48,351 nucleotides of DNA from a virus (lineage: Duplodnaviria; Heunggongvirae; Uroviricota; Caudoviricetes): IMG/VR virus record IMGVR_UViG_2654588181_000001. The stretch is one strand, 5' to 3'. A program made the translations under genes and the position numbers. Each line of letters starts with the position of its first letter. Positions within the stretch are counted from its first letter, which is position 1. Shown one piece after another: positions 1 to 39,116 of this stretch. The notes under the pieces are model-generated. The model was given only the letters and a program-made list of their open reading frames with translations. It ran no database searches and had not been told where the DNA came from.

Positions 1-1361
1 TTTACCGTTTCCTGTAAACCGAGGTATTCGATAACGGCAGCAACGGTTGATTTCGCAAGAATATCCCGCCCGACTTTTGTCAGGGTTGCCAGGCTGGCGA
101 CATCATTCCCCGTAAAATACGGAAACTTGTCTGCCGCAGTAGTAAGCCCGGCCAGCGCCGTCAGGGTGGCATCTTTCGGTTGCTTACCCGCAAGCGCGTT
201 AGTCATGGTGGTCGCAAAATTCGGGTCGTTTCCCAGCGCCGCCGCTAACTCGTTCAGCGTATTCAGTGCGTCAGGTGACGAATCTACAAGGGCGGCAATC
301 GCAGCCATAACATAAGCCGTGCTTGCGATCTGAGTATTGTTAGTACCTTTTGGCGCAGTTGGTGTTGTTGGTGTTCCGGTCAGCGCCGGACTGTTCAGGG
401 GCGCTTTCTTGTTCGTTTCATCCATTACCACCTTTATAGCTTTCGATGTCGCGGCCAGTGTTTCAGACGTGCTGTTGGTGGCACTACTGAGCTGAGTTAT
501 TCCCCTTACAGTCAGTGAAGCTACAGGCACATTTGTTATCTGCTCCCACGAATGCGTGTGATTGGACGGAGCCTTTCCGGCCGCAAGATCATACGCTGCC
601 TTAACAGCCTTTGGTGTTGCTGCCAGCGTTTCAGACGTGCTGTTGGTGGCACTACTGAGCTGAACAATCCCTTTTCGCGCTGTGGTAGCGTCCTGTGCGG
701 TGTATTTAGCATTAGCCAGGTCATATGCTGCCTTAACAGCCTTAGGCGTCGCAGCAAGCGTTTCAGACGCGCTATTGGTGGCGCTGCTAAGTTGAACAAA
801 GCCTTTTGAGGTTAAAGTTGCATCAGGATGATTACGTGATTGCTCATGTTTCACAATGGCTTGCTTAAGCCGTTTTGCTGAAACAGCAAGGGAATCATCT
901 GTACCTGCATCAATTTCTTGTTCATTAGCAAATCTTGCCACCCCAACAACAGTTTCGGTCGCGGGAGGATTAATAAACTCAATATCACCAAATGTAATAT
1001 TTTTAGTATCAAGCGTTTTAATTGCTATATCACTTGATATTAAAGCGATAGTAGATGATGCTTTATTTATTATTGCTTGTTCTTGTGAGTATACAGCAAA
1101 CAACGTACCCTTATTCGTATACAATCCTATTGTATGGACAACATACTCATCTTTACTATCATCCTTCGCTGTTACATGAATTGTATCAGGGGAAACAACT
1201 TTGCCACCTATTGTGGTAAGTCGTTTTATTTCGTTTGTTATATTTGTTTGTGAAGTTGACGTGACATAATATCTACTACCTAAACCAACAGAAACAATCT
1301 CAACTTTATTTGTTCCTGTTTTGTTGGCATTAACCAGCTCCTGACGCCCGGCGTCAGTCAT
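1..1361 (-). CDS. tail fibre protein, constant N-terminal part (partial at window edge; continues in frame into 48351..47390 if ends are joined)
   Basis: Minus-strand ORF from ATG at 1359-1361 (MTDAGRQELVNANKTG...) with no stop before position 1; three tandem ~50-aa repeats (GIVQLSSATNSTSETLAATPKAVKAAYDLA); last codons ...AVIEYLGLQETV lie inside the 25-bp inversion crossover repeat; sits downstream of baseplate gpI/gpJ-like genes. Confidence 0.8.
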   Translation of the reverse strand, partial: MTDAGRQELVNANKTGTNKVEIVSVGLGSRYYVTSTSQTNITNEIKRLTTIGGKVVSPDTIHVTAKDDSKDEYVVHTIGLYTNKGTLFAVYSQEQAIINKASSTIALISSDIAIKTLDTKNITFGDIEFINPPATETVVGVARFANEQEIDAGTDDSLAVSAKRLKQAIVKHEQSRNHPDATLTSKGFVQLSSATNSASETLAATPKAVKAAYDLANAKYTAQDATTARKGIVQLSSATNSTSETLAATPKAVKAAYDLAAGKAPSNHTHSWEQITNVPVASLTVRGITQLSSATNSTSETLAATSKAIKVVMDETNKKAPLNSPALTGTPTTPTAPKGTNNTQIASTAYVMAAIAALVDSSPDALNTLNELAAALGNDPNFATTMTNALAGKQPKDATLTALAGLTTAADKFPYFTGNDVASLATLTKVGRDILAKSTVAAVIEYLGLQETV

Positions 1362-1412
1362 CGTAAATAATAATTTACTCACGCTTAATTCCTTGAATTA
1401 ACAAATTGCGAA

Positions 1413-1994
1413 TTAGCACTCGCCAATTAATCGTACATAAGACACAGGCTGACAAGCACCAACAATACCGACACCACCAGAAACATTGGCTGCTTGCGAA
1501 AATGTAAATAATGTTCTTGCCGACTTTGCGCTCTTGATACTTCTTAACGTATCTTCCAACATCTCTTTCGAAGGAACGGCACCATCAAAAGAGTTAATCG
1601 AAGCAACAATTGAGGCTGTATATGGTTCGCCAGGTGGTGATGTTTCAAACCATTCTGTTATGTTTACCTCTCCACCCAAGCTATTTACTACATCTTCAAC
1701 CGCTGCCCTTGTACCCTTTATTCGCTTTGTTCGTATTATTGATTTAAAAACAGAACGCTTTAACGATACAGACCAACTATCCCTCCATGTATCAGCATTC
1801 CATTGCCAAGCTAAATGATCGAGAACAACTGAGTCCAGGTTATCAACAACGCTATATATTTCTGTCTTATATATTAAATTGTTAATTGCTTGTAGTTCAT
1901 CATCAATAGCTTTCGACATAGCTATCACGTTGGGATCTCTAGCTAAGTTAGGAGGTAAAACATCCAACAAGCTAACATTAAAGATATCAGCCAT
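1413..1994 (-). CDS. baseplate assembly protein, P2 gpI-like
   Basis: 193-aa ORF; position between gpJ-like gene and tail fibre; overlaps gpJ-like stop; family call from memory. Confidence 0.7.
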   Translation of the reverse strand: MADIFNVSLLDVLPPNLARDPNVIAMSKAIDDELQAINNLIYKTEIYSVVDNLDSVVLDHLAWQWNADTWRDSWSVSLKRSVFKSIIRTKRIKGTRAAVEDVVNSLGGEVNITEWFETSPPGEPYTASIVASINSFDGAVPSKEMLEDTLRSIKSAKSARTLFTFSQAANVSGGVGIVGACQPVSYVRLIGEC

Positions 1995-3111
1995 CCTCTA
2001 ACCCCGCATACTGGCAATTTATATTTCTCTCTCTGGCGACCTGCGTCTCTCCAACTACAGTAAATACAGGACTTGATATTTCTAATCTTTTAGCCCCGGC
2101 ATTTTTTAAACGTTGAATAATTTCATCTGGATTTATATCTCTTCCCATAACCGAACGTTGCCATTGTTTATACTCATCAAGAGCTTTCTCAACCTCACTT
2201 TGAATTAACGTTGTTCTGTTTTTGTCCGATGAGTTAATCCAGTATTTAATTATTATATCGTATTCAATGCTCTCTGGTTTCTTAACAAGAACTTTATCTG
2301 TGAATGGTCGAATATTAGTTGCAGAGAGAACGCTATTTATCTGCTCTAATAGTTCATCAGAAGGTATATCCCCGTTCTCTAACAAAGAACGGATTTCTAC
2401 AGTTCCGGGCGATGGTGTATATACATTCACATCTTTTATATTCTGATTGGCTGTTCTTGTCCAATATTTATAAGAATCCTCCGGCCCTGCTGTAGACAGT
2501 TTTTCCGGCGACAGTTTTATTCTTTCAGCATAATTATCATCTGACTCTGTATCAGCACCAGAATTAGATGTTGTTAGATTCCTTACGCTGGAAACATACG
2601 GCAACGGAGTCACCAACTCGTTTATTTGCCCAGGTAAAAATCCATTCCCCGATAAGCCAGGTATAACAGCATATCCTGAGACTGTACCAACTGTTTTCCC
2701 AGCTGGTATTTCCAACAAAACATCTGTTTGGAAAATAACACTATTTCCAGTTGAAATTTGAGTGCCAGCAGGTATTGTATATATCCCCGATAATTTTGTT
2801 GACAGATTAAACTCAAATGTAGTCAAGGCAGATTGAGCTTCCAGCCTAGGCGTATCCGTCAGATAGCCTATATGGTCGAGATATTCACCCCCACCATATG
2901 TAAGAAGGTTTTGTTTTGCAGAAAAATCGATAGCTTTTCTTTGCTGTATAATAATCTCACACAATGACAAGATGAATAATCTACGTGGATCAGCAGGTGC
3001 TAATGTTTCACCTGTTATACTCTCAAAAGCCCTGATTGAACGAGTTGTTATATCAGTCGGGTTAGAATCTGCGAAAGTAATATCTGGCAAACCACCGCGC
3101 GGCAACGTCAT
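1987..3111 (-). CDS. baseplate protein, P2 gpJ-like
   Basis: 374-aa ORF in conserved W-J-I baseplate order; overlapping start/stop with neighbours. Confidence 0.75.
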   Translation of the reverse strand: MTLPRGGLPDITFADSNPTDITTRSIRAFESITGETLAPADPRRLFILSLCEIIIQQRKAIDFSAKQNLLTYGGGEYLDHIGYLTDTPRLEAQSALTTFEFNLSTKLSGIYTIPAGTQISTGNSVIFQTDVLLEIPAGKTVGTVSGYAVIPGLSGNGFLPGQINELVTPLPYVSSVRNLTTSNSGADTESDDNYAERIKLSPEKLSTAGPEDSYKYWTRTANQNIKDVNVYTPSPGTVEIRSLLENGDIPSDELLEQINSVLSATNIRPFTDKVLVKKPESIEYDIIIKYWINSSDKNRTTLIQSEVEKALDEYKQWQRSVMGRDINPDEIIQRLKNAGAKRLEISSPVFTVVGETQVARERNINCQYAGLEDG

Positions 3112-3428
3112 TCTCTAACTCCTATCACAAGTTTTGGCCTAATAAAACCATCAGAAACGTCCGTTCTTTCAAAAGTAACAGAATGGATAATCGCTCTAGG
3201 CTCAAACTCACTAATTTTTTGAATTATTTCTCGTGTTGCTGTAGCAATAAAAATTGGGCTAGGGCTATCAACAAGACTTGAATTAACTCCTAATTTTCTG
3301 GCATATGGTACAGTGCCAATCTGAGTATTAATAATAGTAGAGACATTTTGCAATACTTCTTCTACAACTGTTTTGGGCGACCAATCAATCGAGTAAGAAG
3401 GTGATGATATGGTAAACGTATTATTCAT
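3108..3428 (-). CDS. baseplate protein gpW / gp25-like
   Basis: 106-aa ORF, size and position typical of gp25/GPW baseplate wedge protein. Confidence 0.7.
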   Translation of the reverse strand: MNNTFTISSPSYSIDWSPKTVVEEVLQNVSTIINTQIGTVPYARKLGVNSSLVDSPSPIFIATATREIIQKISEFEPRAIIHSVTFERTDVSDGFIRPKLVIGVRE

Positions 3429-3892
3429 AATAATTTACCTAACGCACTTCTAGTTTTTGACTCTATATTGCCAGCAATATCAACTAATGCTTCTTTCAGA
3501 GAGGTCTGTCCGACTTCCTGTAATTTAATGCCGACGATAATCACTCGCGGATTCCCAGTTGGACCGAAATAAGTCCATGATTCCTCTATATCTGTAATTA
3601 TAAAATTACCAAAATACTGAATACCAATTACAACAGGATTTACTTCCTGAATTGATTGCATTGTCCTAAGTAATGAAAGCGCAGCCAATGGAACAATGCC
3701 AAGTGTTGTATCCAACCGCATATTAAAACTAACTTCATCCAGATCTGGACCTATATCCTCCAGAACAGGTTTAAGCCCAATAACATCATGGCGCGCTACA
3801 CGACGCTTTGACGTCCTTTTAAAATTGTTGAACGTATTCACCACTATTGATGAGGCAACAAAAGGCATTGTACCAAGCATACCCACAATCAT
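3425..3892 (-). CDS. hypothetical baseplate-associated protein
   Basis: 155-aa ORF translationally coupled between spike and gpW-like genes. Confidence 0.45.
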   Translation of the reverse strand: MIVGMLGTMPFVASSIVVNTFNNFKRTSKRRVARHDVIGLKPVLEDIGPDLDEVSFNMRLDTTLGIVPLAALSLLRTMQSIQEVNPVVIGIQYFGNFIITDIEESWTYFGPTGNPRVIIVGIKLQEVGQTSLKEALVDIAGNIESKTRSALGKLL

Positions 3893-4509
3893 GCCTGAGC
3901 CTCCGTTGTCGGAGCGTATTCCCCCTGAGCCGTGTGATGGTGGCCTTTAGATTTAATCCCATCAACATCTATATCACCACCAACAACCTTAACATCCCCA
4001 GAAATTGTAGCTGCAACACCTCCAGCAGAAGATCCTTTCATTCCACCTTTGAAGGTTAGTAATCCTTCAACTGTAGCATTTCCGGTAATGATGGTTTCTG
4101 GAGCATCAATAGTTACGGTTCCTGTAGCCTTAACGGTTACATCTCCGACAGCATCAACAAGGAGTAAATTAGATTCTCTGTCTACCTCAATACGAGTTCC
4201 GTTATTAAATCTAATGACGCGTTTATTAACAGTATTAGATGGCGGCTTCTGTGTTTCATCATAAAAACTACCAAGAATAAAACCTTGTTGCGGCCCTGCG
4301 GGATGAAAGATACACAAAACTTGCTCACCAATATCTGGCATCCAGTAATCAGCATTCTTATCCGTATTTTTCACAATAACTGATAACTTTGCCGAAGTGA
4401 CGTTATCCTGATCATCGAAAGTAACTCTTGCTGTAACATCACCATCATCAATATCAGAAACAACGCCAACTCTTATAGTCTGACGTAATAATGTTTCTAA
4501 ATCATTCAT
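3889..4509 (-). CDS. baseplate central spike protein, gpV-like
   Basis: 206-aa ORF with Gly-rich C-terminus (GTVTIDAPETIITGNATVEGLLTFKGG...) typical of gpV/Mu gp45 spikes. Confidence 0.7.
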   Translation of the reverse strand: MNDLETLLRQTIRVGVVSDIDDGDVTARVTFDDQDNVTSAKLSVIVKNTDKNADYWMPDIGEQVLCIFHPAGPQQGFILGSFYDETQKPPSNTVNKRVIRFNNGTRIEVDRESNLLLVDAVGDVTVKATGTVTIDAPETIITGNATVEGLLTFKGGMKGSSAGGVAATISGDVKVVGGDIDVDGIKSKGHHHTAQGEYAPTTEAQA

Positions 4510-4511
4510 AA

Positions 4512-5513
4512 TTAATACCCATTAATTACTCTTCGGACATCAATCGAGGTGGTATAACCACTAGCCCCAATTGAATGCACAGCTTTCGATATAAGATATT
4601 TTCCAGAAAATGAACCGAATCCGTCCAGATTTATAGTTACACCAGCTACCAATCTGGTGTCTCCAACCAATACTAAAGATCCTGTATTTTGATATCTATT
4701 TTTAAGCCGCAAAGCAGCCTTTGCCTTACGTTTTGCTTCATCTAAATTAGCTACCAGTTTTCTTATCTTAAGATTCGACCCATCTTCTACGGATGGATCT
4801 ACCCAAGTATACGAAAGCGACTTTCTTTTTTTAGGTACGCGATATTTGCACGTGCAACTTTTATACAAATCTGTAGATTGTGTGCTAAAGCTATATCTGA
4901 TTATCTCATCAATACCTAACGTAAGCGTAGCGATAGGATCTTTTTGCTCAAACATCTCTTGAGCAAATATTATTAATTGGCTATCAGTGACCTTTAACGA
5001 CAACCCTTCATCCTGGCATAGTCGATGGAGAAATTTTAAATCGCTTTCCTCCATTTGATCTTCACGCGCATAATATGGATTACTATCACCATCAATAAGA
5101 AACAACAGTTCAAGGTTAGCTAATTTAGCTATAGAGGTTGCTATATCTTTAAGAGTTGTTTTTTCCCATGCATTACTTTTTAAATCGCGTCTAATGCCTG
5201 ATGAAACAGGAACAGAAACAGCAGTCACCTCAACAACAGAAGGTGGTCCAGAGCAAGTTATGCCATCTACCTGGAATTTCCCGCACTCAAGGACGATTTG
5301 ATTTATAGGCTTAAAGCTCAAATCAATAAAATCACCCTTTTTAGGTGTCCAGTCTCCAGACCATTTCCCATCATCATTTTTTAATATAATAGAAATATCA
5401 TCGACCTGACCATCTTCATTATCTGTATAAGACATTGACAAAACATCAGGTGACATATGAGCGGTAATATTTACATTCTGATATATAACATCAAAAAGCG
5501 TTTTACGTAACAC
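4512..5513 (-). CDS. tail/baseplate hub protein, gpD (late control D)-like
   Basis: 333-aa ORF between tape measure and spike genes. Confidence 0.7.
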   Translation of the reverse strand: MLRKTLFDVIYQNVNITAHMSPDVLSMSYTDNEDGQVDDISIILKNDDGKWSGDWTPKKGDFIDLSFKPINQIVLECGKFQVDGITCSGPPSVVEVTAVSVPVSSGIRRDLKSNAWEKTTLKDIATSIAKLANLELLFLIDGDSNPYYAREDQMEESDLKFLHRLCQDEGLSLKVTDSQLIIFAQEMFEQKDPIATLTLGIDEIIRYSFSTQSTDLYKSCTCKYRVPKKRKSLSYTWVDPSVEDGSNLKIRKLVANLDEAKRKAKAALRLKNRYQNTGSLVLVGDTRLVAGVTINLDGFGSFSGKYLISKAVHSIGASGYTTSIDVRRVINGY

Positions 5514-25973: not shown

Positions 25974-26049
25974 TGGTGGCCCCTACCGGATTTGAACCGA
26001 TGACCGTGCGATTATGAGTCGCCTGCTCTAACCACTGAGCTAAGGGGCC
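25974..26049 (-). tRNA. tRNA with CAU anticodon (Ile2/lysidine type or Met), CCA encoded
   Basis: 76-nt cloverleaf: GGCCCCT acceptor stem, D-arm TAGCTCAGTGGTTAGAGCA, anticodon loop CTCATAA, T-loop GGTTCAAATCC, 3' CCA; first ~42 nt match my recollection of E. coli ileX. Confidence 0.8.
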
Positions 26050-35563: not shown

Positions 35564-35713
35564 CTGCAAGCGGGCTAACGCCCGCTTATATGATTATAGA
35601 TTTATATAATTATATAAAACGCTTTTCATCCGCCAAAAAGTTGGTTATGCTTACCTCGTTCTATAAATATAGATTTATAGAATTATATAATCAAACACAT
35701 GGAGTCTCGACAA

Positions 35714-36367
35714 ATGACTATCTCTGTAGGTATTTTCAACGGAAAAGGTGGCGTAACCAAATCAACAATTGCCCGTGCTTTAGCAGTTGCTTATGCAAAG
35801 GCTGGCTGGAATGTATGCCTGATCGATATGGATGTGCTTAACGGAACGGTAACGCGTTGGGTACAACGCAGAATGGCCAACAATATCGAACCAGCAATCG
35901 CGGCGCAGCCGTGCGGCACACCATCACAAGTCCAGAAAATCATCGAATCAGAAGTATACGACCTGGTTATCGTTGATGGCGGTGCCTACGCATCTGAATC
36001 AGTACCGAAGCTATCTGAATTTCTGGATATGGTTATTTTGCCAACCCGATTCTCTACCGATGACCTGGAAACCACCGTTAACACTGCTCACGGCATCGTT
36101 AAAAAGGGTGTACCAATCAAGAAAATTTGCATGGTGTTTTCCGGCGCGGCTGAAAACGAAGCTGACTATATTGAAGCCCAAGAGTACCTGGCTAATACGC
36201 CATACTTTGTTGTCGATAAGTACATTCCCCACAAGCCAGCTCTGAGCAAAGCTCAGGATAAGGGCTTAAGCCTCATTGAATGCTCATACGTTGCGCCACG
36301 CAAAAAGGCAGACGACGTTATTCAGGGGATTATCAACCAGCTTGAGGCTCTGACTACTGCCGCGTAA
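35714..36367 (+). CDS. parA: ParA-family partition ATPase
   Basis: Deviant Walker A GIFNGKGGVTKST at N-terminus; ATG at 35714 with GGAG 10 nt upstream. Confidence 0.85.
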   Translation: MTISVGIFNGKGGVTKSTIARALAVAYAKAGWNVCLIDMDVLNGTVTRWVQRRMANNIEPAIAAQPCGTPSQVQKIIESEVYDLVIVDGGAYASESVPKLSEFLDMVILPTRFSTDDLETTVNTAHGIVKKGVPIKKICMVFSGAAENEADYIEAQEYLANTPYFVVDKYIPHKPALSKAQDKGLSLIECSYVAPRKKADDVIQGIINQLEALTTAA

Positions 36368-36410
36368 TATATAATTATAGTTTTATAGATTTATATAAGA
36401 GGGGATACAC

Positions 36411-36659
36411 ATGGCCGCACCATCAAAACCACCAAAGAAGAACAGCAAAGGCGTACCGCCATCGATCGAACAACCGCAAGTTTTCGACCCGACTGAAACG
36501 CCAACCAGAACCAAATCAGGTGGGGCTCAAATGGCGTTTAATGTCGACCCTGAATTTAAACGCGAGTACAAAACGTTCGCCAGCTCAATGGATATGTCAT
36601 TGAAAGAAGTGCTGACAAAGTCTTTTGAGTTACTCAAGGCTCAATACAACCAGAAGTAA
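36411..36659 (+). CDS. small centromere-binding partner (ParG-like RHH)
   Basis: 82-aa ORF directly after parA; disordered basic N-terminus then MAFNVDPEFKREYKTFA RHH-like segment. Confidence 0.55.
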   Translation: MAAPSKPPKKNSKGVPPSIEQPQVFDPTETPTRTKSGGAQMAFNVDPEFKREYKTFASSMDMSLKEVLTKSFELLKAQYNQK

Positions 36660-36688
36660 GAGAAGGTGACGGCCTCCAGCGCCAACTG

Positions 36689-36871
36689 TTGGCCGTCGCG
36701 ACACAACAAGGGGAATTTGTTATGTCCGAACAACAATATACACGGTTACTGAAAACTCGTCTAACCGACCTCAAACGGCTGCAAGCTGGTCGCTTATTTG
36801 CCCTGCTATCCACCAGGCCAGAATGGGTACGTGAAGCAGTTCTGAAAGGCTTAATGCGCTCCAGCGTTTAA
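36689..36871 (+). CDS. hypothetical small protein
   Basis: 60-aa ORF. Confidence 0.3.
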   Translation: MAVATQQGEFVMSEQQYTRLLKTRLTDLKRLQAGRLFALLSTRPEWVREAVLKGLMRSSV

Positions 36872-36880
36872 ATTCAACCA

Positions 36881-36903
36881 TAAAAAAGGCCCCCGAAGGG
36901 GCC
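36881..36903 (-). terminator. rho-independent terminator
   Basis: GGCCCC-CGAA-GGGGCC hairpin followed by T-run on minus strand. Confidence 0.5.
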
Positions 36904-36909
36904 TAATCG

Positions 36910-37029
36910 CTACTTGCTGCTAATGTTTATCGTCACATTCAGAGCGTTATCAGTAATCTTCCAACCCTCCCCATGTGGCGTAAACAAAGCTCCAGTAACA
37001 ACGATAAAAATACACATACAGTATTTTTT
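36910..37029 (-). CDS. small hydrophobic peptide (40 aa) with own SD and terminator
   Basis: MKKYCMCIFIVVTGALFTPHGEGW...; AAGGG 8 nt upstream of ATG; terminator immediately downstream. Confidence 0.35.
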   Translation of the reverse strand, partial: KKYCMCIFIVVTGALFTPHGEGWKITDNALNVTINISSK

Positions 37030-37785
37030 CATTGTGTGGCCCTTACAGGCCGTTTCACGGCATCCCCACCGACGAAAACAACGCGAGAGCAAGCACGGCT
37101 GCTTGTGCTTGCATGTACGGCAACAGGAAATCCTCCCCTAAAGTCGGTGCCCGGGTGCGAATCGGCGGGAAGGTCCACAGGTATTTTACGATTATTTTAA
37201 GATTAGTAATAGGAAAGAAATTAAACGAAAAAAACAGTTTATTTTCACAAAATCAGTAACCTACCCACAATCTGTGAGTTTGCTGACACAACAAGAACCA
37301 CAATTTTTTGATGTATAATAGTGGACTATTATTACCTTTTGAGTAAAATCAATTTGCTGCTTGTGCTTGCGTGGTTGTTTATACAACAACGTAATGCTGA
37401 AAGGACCGCGAATCCGATCAGCACGAAAGAACCGTCCTCAATAGGGCGGTTTTTTTGTTTCTGCCTACCAATAAACCCACGCTATGTGGTTGTCTCTGTT
37501 AAAATCCCGCCGTATTGACATGAATGCGCCATTGGTGGACACTTTCCGAGCCGTAGCAAAATCTACGGTCGGGATTAGCCTCCTGAATAACACGATGGCG
37601 CATACCGCGTTAGCGGTTTTTTTATGCGTAGAGCACTGTTACGCCCAAATTATGGTGGGTCGTACAGGGGCGGAGAAATCCGCGCCGGTTCGTCATTGTG
37701 TCCGGTAAGGCTAACCCTGTACGGCTCACCACCATTTGATTAGCCTCGAATGGCGGTGATAGTTCCATATACTGGAGATATCACA

Positions 37786-37977
37786 ATGACAAACCTACCC
37801 CATGACTATTACGTCAACCTCGTAAAGATCCTTCTCAAGAAAGCCTCATACGCCGATAAATTCCGCCTGGCTGAAATCATCGAGCGCGAAGCTATGCGCA
37901 TCGCCAGCAACGATAACGCTGTTTCTGACGCAAAAATCTCCCTCGTAACCAAAGTAGTTATGGGAGGTGCAAAATGA
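37786..37977 (+). CDS. small ORF overlapping antirepressor start (icd-like position)
   Basis: Stop overlaps ant ATG (ATGA at 37974..37977); start uncertain. Confidence 0.35.
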   Translation: MTNLPHDYYVNLVKILLKKASYADKFRLAEIIEREAMRIASNDNAVSDAKISLVTKVVMGGAK

Positions 37978-39116
37978 AAACGCTTCCGACCGTTAACACC
38001 CTACAGCCTATCCTGCATAACCAGATCCCCGTTATCACTAGTGAACTTCTGGCGCAGTTATACGGAACAAAAATCAAAAACATTTCTGATAACTTTCTGA
38101 ACAACACGACGCGATTCGTAGCCGGAAAGCATTACTTTAAAATTGAAAAAAACGAATTACGCGAGTTCAAGAACAGACCCGAAACAATCGGGTTAGTTGG
38201 TAAAAATGCCCGCTCCCTAATTCTCTGGACCGAACGCGGGGCTGCACGTCACGCTAAAATGCTCGAAACCGATCAGGCGTGGGATGTATTCGAACGGCTG
38301 GAAGACTGCTATTTCAGCCAGAACGCGCAAACGGCCGCGACCGTAACCGTCTCGCCAAACAATGCTCGTGAGGTTGTCGATACGCTCAACGCCAAACCGA
38401 TGTTTTACATTAAGGTGTGCAATAACGAGCCACTCACAACCTCAGCCGATGTTGCCCAGGCATTCAGCACCACAAACAATTCCATCGTTATGGCCATCGA
38501 TGCGCTACGCATTCCTCGCACGGCTGCGGCGCGTCACTTCTTTAAAGAGCAACGACCGTTGGAAGGAAGCGACCGCGAAATAACAATCTATCGCATGACA
38601 AAAGACGGATTTACCTTGCTCATGGAGAGCATCGACGGTCCAGGCGTGAAAGATATCAAGCTGGCCTACATTGAAGCCTTTAACGCTATCAGCAGCGTGT
38701 TAAAAACACAGTACGAGCGTGATCTGGCTAAACGACTGTACCAGGAAAAAACGATTATCCGCGCGGCAACAGAGCATAATCGGCTATTAACGGAACCGAA
38801 CTACAGGAAGGAACTAATCAAGGAGTTTGACAAGGCAACAGGGAAAACCAAAGCGGCGCTAAATCTGCCAGCAATGACTCAGGAAAATGTGATATCAGCC
38901 TTACTTCTTGATCTGCTCAGAAACGCCAGAGCACTTATCAGCTTTGACGAAAACCTGAATCCTCAGCTCAAGCTACTACCACCGACAGGCAAAGTAGTCG
39001 ACCAGGCTGATCACAACAGCATACTCAGCGTACTGGATGCAAACCTGCCAGCCAGGACACTACAGGATCTGATAAAAACATGTGCTGATAAGCTGGCACA
39101 GAAAAGCAGACCATAA
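37974..39116 (+). CDS. antirepressor (Ant-like)
   Basis: 380-aa ORF; N-terminal KilA-N/ORF6N-like segment; operator-like CCCACGCTATGTGGT upstream at 37477..37491. Confidence 0.7.
   Translation: MKTLPTVNTLQPILHNQIPVITSELLAQLYGTKIKNISDNFLNNTTRFVAGKHYFKIEKNELREFKNRPETIGLVGKNARSLILWTERGAARHAKMLETDQAWDVFERLEDCYFSQNAQTAATVTVSPNNAREVVDTLNAKPMFYIKVCNNEPLTTSADVAQAFSTTNNSIVMAIDALRIPRTAAARHFFKEQRPLEGSDREITIYRMTKDGFTLLMESIDGPGVKDIKLAYIEAFNAISSVLKTQYERDLAKRLYQEKTIIRAATEHNRLLTEPNYRKELIKEFDKATGKTKAALNLPAMTQENVISALLLDLLRNARALISFDENLNPQLKLLPPTGKVVDQADHNSILSVLDANLPARTLQDLIKTCADKLAQKSRP

Follow-up and report, generated by a model that had tools for sequence, protein, structure and literature searches.

A divergent, unannotated and probable timP/TimR type I toxin-antitoxin locus on an Escherichia coli phage-plasmid

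The RNA named ryfA was originally reported to be non-coding, and in 2020 it was re-identified as the mRNA of TimP, which in Salmonella is a 38-amino acid protein of the inner membrane that is toxic and makes the membrane leaky (PMC7667032). Here we describe a locus in the virus record IMGVR_UViG_2654588181_000001 (Caudoviricetes), a DNA stretch of 48,351 nucleotides that was analysed at its full length and is called the window below. This locus very probably is a timP/TimR (timPR) type I toxin-antitoxin system carried by a ~48-kb phage-plasmid of E. coli. The system is already known and named, and the novelty of this copy is low: it is a divergent and unannotated member borne by a mobile element.

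The timP/TimR system occurs in Salmonella, E. coli and further enterobacteria (Andresen 2020; Eleftheraki and Holmqvist 2024; Eleftheraki 2026). In Salmonella, TimR, also known as STnc2070/RyfB1, is a divergently encoded small RNA (sRNA) that blocks TimP translation, and its 5' region has 18 nucleotides that are complementary to the 5' untranslated region (UTR) of timP (PMC7667032). The timP leader folds into four stem-loops (SL1 to SL4), wherein the TimR site lies in SL2 and the Shine-Dalgarno (SD) sequence is trapped in SL4 (PMC11228461, PMC13000454). Translation of timP requires a 7-bp pseudoknot between SL1 and SL3 (sites 1 and 3) together with a pairing of site 2 with site 4, by which SL4 is opened, and pairing of site 1 with site 2 locks an inactive conformation (PMC11228461, PMC13000454). 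In E. coli K-12, timR (b4811), ryfA (b4440) and timP (b4812; 41 amino acids) are annotated between sseA and sseB.

The chromosomal systems and the window locus have the same RNA family (RF00126), a peptide of ~40 amino acids with a hydrophobic N-terminus, a start codon at +147 and a divergent layout with a trans-acting antitoxin. Also shared are the body of TimR (a hairpin with the consensus CUGxxAAAGGxCCGCGAAxC, then a terminator), the pairing of the TimR 5' end with SL2, the SL1-SL3 pseudoknot, an SD placed within SL4 and the site 2-4 pairing. The chromosomal locus sits between sseA and sseB, whereas the window copy sits on a phage-plasmid, and it differs from that of K-12 in its targeting sequence, in a shorter SL4, in a site 1-2 lock that falls outside the published register and in the spacer between timP and timR (~180 nucleotides in the window versus ~400 in K-12). 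Among other type I systems, tisB/istR-1, shoB/ohsC and zor/orz resemble timPR in being adjacent, non-overlapping pairs whose antitoxin pairs with the 5' UTR over ~18-20 nucleotides. However, their RNAs and peptides are unrelated to those of timPR, and their mRNAs need processing or standby sites.

RNA homology and the TimP peptide

The assignment draws on computational results, which comprise homology of both RNAs, a conserved open reading frame (ORF), a covarying duplex, the pseudoknot, SL4, the site 2-4 pairing and presence throughout the phage-plasmid family. In an Rfam scan of the whole window, the ryfA model (RF00126) matches 36882..37178 on the minus strand over all of its length (positions 1-296 of 296) at 140.1 bits, versus a gathering score of 80. 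The timP mRNAs of relatives score 134-251 bits with this model, and the chromosomal RNAs of Erwinia, Pantoea and Yersinia score 180-251 bits.

A sequence-only reading of this DNA had described a 40-amino acid ORF on the minus strand with its own SD and its own terminator, and all of these elements are present. The ORF span that it gave, 36910..37029, rightly includes the stop codon and misses the start codon by three nucleotides. Translation of 36907..37029 lacks an initial methionine, which places the ATG at 37032..37030, and the SD (AAGGG, 37040..37044, minus strand) lies 7 nucleotides ahead of it. The window, K-12 and the metagenomic relative L008 all have this ATG at +147 of the Rfam match. 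The same reading recognised no family for the peptide; its family is TimP, which had previously been read as the non-coding RNA RyfA.

The window peptide has a hydrophobic N-terminal segment and a polar C-terminus, and it aligns end to end and in frame with K-12 TimP (36% identity). The hydropathy profiles of the two are equal, with mean Kyte-Doolittle values of 2.16 (window) and 2.13 (K-12) for residues 4-18. The peptide has no match in Pfam, and its sole family match is the NCBIfam model toxic_TimP (NF040796), which aligns at full length with 23 bits and an E value of 7e-5. Scores for this model fall from 86.8 bits in K-12 through 49.5 in Erwinia, 43.5 in Pantoea and 28.6 in L008 to 23 in the window. 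The chromosomal TimPs of Erwinia, Pantoea and Yersinia that were recovered in a genome scan are 43-51% identical to the window peptide. They score 43-50 bits, have the motif GEGxW..S.N...VTIN in common with it and bridge the window peptide to the TimP family.

In all homologues the ORF is intact, in frame and constant in position, and the peptides are 39-41 amino acids long. When the window ORF is compared with the 68%-identical ORF of L008, the ratio of nonsynonymous to synonymous substitution rates (dN/dS) is ~0.4 (0.41). The window peptide is a divergent outlier of TimP whose membership rests on the RNA evidence, and it falls short of the score that the NCBI pipeline requires to name a protein TimP. 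A large protein database yielded only two relatives of the peptide, small ORFs being rarely called, and a scan of a genome collection by one peptide pattern yielded only five chromosomal relatives, such that the distribution is under-sampled.

TimR, its pairing with timP and the leader fold

The 48-kb window contains exactly two copies of the 15-mer GCTGCTTGTGCTTGC, at 37098..37112 and 37356..37370, both of them on the plus strand, as the sequence-only reading had reported. The 8-bp leader hairpin that it drew at 37089..37112 is confirmed as well (fold ΔG -13.4 kcal/mol, z -3.0). This hairpin is SL2, the known TimR-binding site, and the repeat represents the pairing of TimR with timP. When the whole window was shuffled, the mean number of matches to the 15-mer was 0.18, even with two mismatches allowed. 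Absence of the repeat from relatives had been named as a finding that should count against the proposed layout. Instead, every relative examined carries the repeat, with changes in one copy matched in the other, and because of this a chance origin of the repeat is excluded. With the RNA model, the TimR homology and the covarying complementarity, the suspected type I toxin-antitoxin layout is borne out.

Since Rfam has no TimR family, we made a covariance model of our own from five chromosomal TimRs (Erwinia, Pantoea, K-12), with no phage-plasmid sequence included. It matches the window at 37358..37455 with 60.7 bits and an E value of 4e-12, the next best match in the window having 20 bits, and it finds the expected site in every relative. 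The TimR candidates of eight loci follow one plan, wherein a 5' targeting region is followed by a small hairpin and a conserved hairpin, and then by a linker rich in A and a terminator, and their consensus fold (RNAalifold) includes seven pairs with compensatory changes. Past the second copy of the repeat, the plus strand of the window reads TGCTGAAAGGACCGCGAATCCGATCAGCA and then forms a strong terminator; K-12 TimR reads TGCTGGAAAGGCCGCGAACCAGACTAGCA, likewise followed by a terminator. Sub-threshold Rfam matches of this region to RNAI (26.7 bits versus 47) and Phe_leader were rejected and are read as a generic likeness of hairpin-plus-terminator RNAs.

The start sites of both RNAs are predicted from sequence. 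For TimR, the conserved promoter, the covariance model and the 5' end of K-12 TimR agree on a start at ~37356; in relatives the -35 box is kept, as is most of the -10 box, and K-12 TimR, which starts with GCUG, also pairs from its 5' end. Thus, the predicted start of the plus-strand small RNA that had been suspected is ~37356 and not 37326, and the repeat would form its extreme 5' end in place of an internal segment. A TATAAT at 37314, which would put the start at ~37326, was rejected as the main TimR start, since relatives do not conserve it. For timP, the TAAAAT at 37183..37188 is the likely -10 box. The motif GTAA.AT is unvarying in six phage-plasmid variants, despite divergence of the remaining intergenic region, and K-12 ryfA starts 6 nucleotides past its TATTAT. 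No good -35 box was found upstream of the timP TAAAAT.

An ungapped scan pairs TimR nucleotides 1-18 with leader nucleotides 64-81 in an 18-bp duplex of 17 Watson-Crick pairs and one G.U pair. Homologues have duplexes of 17-25 bp that differ in sequence and lie at the same leader position (64-89), and each of Erwinia, Pantoea and K-12 has its own duplex of 20-25 bp there. We used ungapped scans and duplexes of short segments here, as RNAduplex on full-length RNAs gave meaningless structures with long interior loops. Both repeat copies covary: the sequence shared by the two sites is AAGCAGC in the window, AAGCGG in JE86_p3, and AAACAG in ATCC 25922, p98192 and Yersinia phage YpM_41. The relative L008 carries a different 17-mer, ATGCAAGCACTAACCTG, at both pairing sites (CTAACCTG in the duplex comparison). 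Cognate duplexes contain 17-19 Watson-Crick pairs, versus 5-6 for cross partners between the window and K-12. The phage-plasmid timPR is therefore predicted to be insulated from the chromosomal timPR of its host, with poor cross-talk with K-12 TimR.

The leader structure, comprising SL1 to SL4 and the pseudoknot, was counted on an alignment of eight sequences. It was counted in this way because RNAfold draws no pseudoknots, and its minimum free energy (MFE) fold of the window leader pairs site 1 with site 3 in a nested fashion in place of SL1 and SL3. Overall, 92% of cells are paired, versus 37-44% once the partners are shifted by 1-3 columns, and nine pairs are changed on both sides. The pseudoknot forms seven of seven Watson-Crick pairs in the window (duplex ΔG -13.3 kcal/mol) and is 100% paired in all eight sequences, with three pairs changed on both sides. 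Its strands are CACCGAC/GUCGGUG in the window and CGCUGGC/GCCAGUG in K-12. SL4 shows compensatory changes from C-G to U-A among homologues. The site 2-4 pairing, GCCGU/ACGGC, has five Watson-Crick pairs in the window and is kept at 92% in the eight homologues versus ~40% in slid controls, with no pair changed on both sides. This divergent lineage lends the pseudoknot independent support by covariation, and it retains the site 2-4 pairing without compensatory changes. The alternative site 1-2 pairing takes the form of 4 bp (GGCA/UGCC) that overlap both sites, with -6.5 to -7.0 kcal/mol versus -10.7 in K-12, which suggests that this published element may not be strictly conserved.

Table 1. Positions of the timPR features in the window
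Feature	Coordinates	Strand	Remarks
timP mRNA (Rfam ryfA), ~297 nt	36882..37178	-	146-nt structured 5' UTR, 40-codon ORF, terminator
Candidate timP -10 box TAAAAT	37183..37188	-	Read from sequence; predicted start ~37176..37178
SL1	37132..37173	-	Lower stem 93% paired in 8-sequence alignment
Pseudoknot site 1 CACCGAC	37143..37149	-	Inside SL1
Site 2 GCCGU	37117..37121	-	Pairs with SL4 5' flank ACGGC, 37049..37053
SL2, 8-bp hairpin GCAAGCAC/GTGCTTGC	37089..37112	-	Predicted TimR site 37098..37115
SL3	37055..37086	-	Holds pseudoknot site 3 GUCGGUG, 37067..37073
SL4 GGCCU-GUAA-GGGCC	37038..37051	-	Fold ΔG -8.9 kcal/mol; sequesters SD AAGGG, 37040..37044
timP ORF, 40 codons and stop	36910..37032	-	ATG 37032..37030, stop 36912..36910; peptide MKKYCMCIFIVVTGALFTPHGEGWKITDNALNVTINISSK
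timP intrinsic terminator	36882..36904	-	7-bp G+C stem, 4-nt loop, U-run; ΔG -15.6 kcal/mol, z -2.5
TimR promoter TGGACT-16-TAAAAT	37322..37349	+	Promoter scan; predicted start ~37356, first base of repeat
TimR antitoxin sRNA, 101 nt	37356..37456	+	Fold ΔG -40.3 kcal/mol, z -5.4
TimR 5' targeting region	37356..37373	+	
TimR small hairpin	37367..37394	+	
TimR conserved hairpin	37395..37423	+	
TimR terminator with U7 run	37425..37456	+	

Two chromosomal loci have unusual arrangements. In Yersinia similis, the duplex scan found no upstream complementarity because its TimR (88 bits; 1342..1436, minus strand) overlaps the timP leader, namely the 5' part of the ryfA match at 1370..1653 (plus strand), in a cis-antisense arrangement. 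The SL1 region of this leader appears to be replaced by the TimR complement, and Ysr224 lies just upstream. This timPR may be rearranged or wired differently. In K-12, the interval between the annotated timR and ryfA genes (~3030..3290 of the extracted locus) contains a second TimR-like copy that is unannotated and has both the conserved hairpin and the terminator, along with a truncated 5' fragment of ryfA, and this tandem remnant recalls the Shigella siblings RyfA1/RyfA2. Of the two TimR copies, it is the annotated, distal one that is complementary to SL2 of ryfA.

Competing explanations and genomic setting

Several observations weigh against the conclusion that this locus is a working timP/TimR system with a role in the phage-plasmid. 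The peptide lies below the NCBIfam cut-off for TimP (23 versus 45 bits), such that the curated protein model does not name it, and it is just 36% identical to K-12 TimP. SL4 is shorter than in K-12 (5 bp versus 7 bp), and the inactive lock between sites 1 and 2 is not kept in the K-12 register. A type II pair on the ATCC 25922 plasmid (24728..25374), which consists of a RelE/ParE-family toxin and a helix-turn-helix antitoxin, could already give addiction. Finally, deletion of timR at its native locus in Salmonella causes no growth defect (PMC7667032), and thus killing on plasmid loss is not a given. Some of these points would be expected if timPR were a decaying or silenced remnant without toxin activity, as its TimP is the most divergent of the set (22-29 bits versus the cut-off of 45) and has the shorter SL4 and the weak site 1-2 lock. 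This explanation appears improbable, since the locus is intact in essentially all of the ~72 family members, and the ORF and TimR hardly vary although the spacer has been replaced. In addition, compensatory changes have preserved the duplex as well as the pseudoknot and SL4, and the 68%-identical relative L008 keeps everything in another gene order.

Another proposal is that the minus-strand transcript serves mainly as a regulatory non-coding RNA (RyfA) that tunes host stress responses or virulence, with the ORF being incidental. Papers on uropathogenic and avian pathogenic strains and on Shigella do regard RyfA as an sRNA with effects on stress resistance, biofilm and virulence, and in the window the RNA structure is better kept than the peptide (140 bits for the RNA model versus a sub-threshold protein score). 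We nevertheless judge this unlikely, because the ORF is intact and in frame at the same position in all homologues with a dN/dS of ~0.4, because the leader elements that are conserved are the ones known to govern its translation (PMC11228461, PMC13000454), and because mutation of the Salmonella timP start codon abolishes toxicity and leaves the mRNA level unchanged (PMC7667032). It is far less plausible that the 15-nucleotide repeat is a duplication, arisen by chance or recombination, without any RNA-RNA function, and that the plus-strand region is the leader of the isrK-C4-antirepressor operon. The second copy does lie on the same strand as isrK and ~190 nucleotides upstream of it. However, the expected number of matches per window is only the 0.18 given above, covariation of the copies is seen among three phage-plasmid variants and also in L008, and the region has its own strong terminator and its significant TimR model match. 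Furthermore, a separate promoter-like site, TTGACA-N17-GACACT, is located between the TimR terminator and isrK.

The conclusion that the locus is timPR is also consistent with its distribution. The window is a ~48-kb phage-plasmid whose closest records are E. coli plasmids of 47-50 kb, among them a plasmid of ATCC 25922 with genes for RepA, ParA, a terminase and myovirus tail proteins, and three 49-kb Yersinia pestis phages are also close to it. Among complete E. coli genomes, 72 carry the terminase, 71 carry RepA and 72 carry the timPR segment. As these counts match, timPR is a core gene of the phage-plasmid family. Nevertheless, ryfA, timP and timR are unannotated in seven of seven related records inspected (the three Yersinia phages and four RefSeq E. 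coli phage-plasmids), and most rows of the E. coli and PLSDB match tables list no feature under the timPR match. We found no account in the literature of timPR or ryfA on phages or phage-plasmids. This copy is not the first plasmid-borne timPR, as pGDT4 and two Serratia plasmids carry timPR or match K-12 ryfA. The conjugative Yersinia pseudotuberculosis plasmid pGDT4 (NC_011759) also has a complete timPR (ryfA 235 bits, TimR 96 bits). Unlike the window copy, it is near the chromosomal type, is named timP by PGAP, and sits beside transfer genes on an IncFII plasmid. It occupies 3835..4298 of the extracted locus, and a second, weaker TimR-like match (43 bits) lies just upstream.

In the window, timPR is flanked by a ParA partition operon (35699..36871) and by a module containing isrK, C4 and an ORF6N-pRha gene (37550..39116). 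In L008, timPR lies on the opposite side of the isrK-C4-pRha module, near the same ParA. The timP ORF and TimR are nearly invariant among phage-plasmids while the intergenic spacer is replaced. Two groups of phage-plasmids with terminases that are at least 99% identical have essentially non-homologous spacers (37190..37340, the stretch with both promoters), and in these groups timP and TimR remain conserved along with the flanks, which suggests replacement of a promoter cassette, or recombination, within the toxin-antitoxin locus.

On the TimR side, isrK (37550..37623, plus strand, 65.7 bits) lies directly past the TimR terminator and is followed on the same strand by the C4 antisense RNA (37648..37736, 70.8 bits), a 75-amino acid ORF (37750..37977) and an antirepressor-like protein with ORF6N and pRha domains (37974..39116). 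This set looks like the immI-type anti-immunity module of phage P1; in L008, the a1/b1 target family (RF03163) is matched as well. The ATCC 25922 plasmid (20562..21134) and the Yersinia phages (4832..5404 in one of them; minus strand) have an extra helix-turn-helix gene of 573 bp directly downstream of the TimR terminator, which may serve both TimR and this gene in these elements. The window is without this gene. On the timP side, an 82-amino acid ORF of the ParA operon is followed by a 60-amino acid ORF (36689..36871, plus strand) that is unannotated in the RefSeq relatives inspected and has no Pfam match. It ends 11 nucleotides before the timP terminator hairpin, which is a palindrome and may for this reason also terminate the convergent plus-strand genes that end at 36871.

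Elsewhere, a tRNA with the anticodon CAT (25974..26049, minus strand) is called tRNA-Met by ARAGORN, and its homologue on the ATCC 25922 plasmid is annotated as tRNA-Ile. If the latter is correct, it would be of the Ile2 type, read after lysidine modification. The type II toxin mentioned above is named HigB2 in the annotation of a Yersinia phage. The phage-plasmid family may thus have two toxin-antitoxin systems, the type II pair being described here from relatives.

Proposed mechanism and role

Toxicity, the membrane target and translational repression are carried over to this copy from the Salmonella literature. By this analogy, the minus strand would give rise to a timP mRNA of ~297 nucleotides, with a structured leader and a TimP-like peptide of 40 amino acids, and the plus strand to a divergent TimR of 101 nucleotides whose first 18 nucleotides would pair with SL2. 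Translation of timP would occur only when the SL1-SL3 pseudoknot has formed and site 2 opens SL4 to bare the SD. Binding of TimR to SL2 would destabilize the active, pseudoknot-containing fold, such that ribosomes are not loaded and translation is blocked. Without TimR, the hydrophobic peptide would be made and would damage the inner membrane.

As our best guess, which we infer only, the most likely role of timPR in the phage-plasmid is maintenance of the plasmid-prophage by post-segregational killing. This is suggested because the locus adjoins partition genes, is universal in the family and is predicted to be insulated from the host timPR. It is also suggested because the timP mRNA outlives TimR in Salmonella (PMC7667032), and post-segregational killing needs this asymmetry.

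Such a role can be compared with that of a well-studied system, as it is akin to hok/sok of plasmid R1 in combining a small membrane-damaging peptide, a stable structured mRNA, a less stable antisense RNA and carriage on a plasmid. The hok/sok system is the paradigm of post-segregational type I systems; Sok is cis-encoded and overlaps the mok leader, and translation of hok needs 3' processing and coupling to mok. In contrast, the sequences of timPR are unrelated to those of hok/sok, the timP mRNA is unprocessed and uses a pseudoknot switch, and the antitoxin does not overlap the toxin gene. No hok/sok family reached the Rfam gathering score in the window, where only ryfA, isrK, C4 and one tRNA did so.

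A more specific and tentative idea, which we regard as possible but rather doubtful, is that timPR acts as an orthogonal module for addiction or as a stress switch. Host TimR could not substitute for the phage-plasmid copy, and either loss of the plasmid-prophage or shut-off of TimR at induction would free TimP and permeabilize the membrane. If this idea were true, it would provide the first defined biological function for TimP. The function would be maintenance of the plasmid-prophage, or else a link of the partition and immunity region to cell death. Besides correcting the annotation of these elements, the phage-plasmid copy thus offers a natural setting for testing timPR as a maintenance or killing module.

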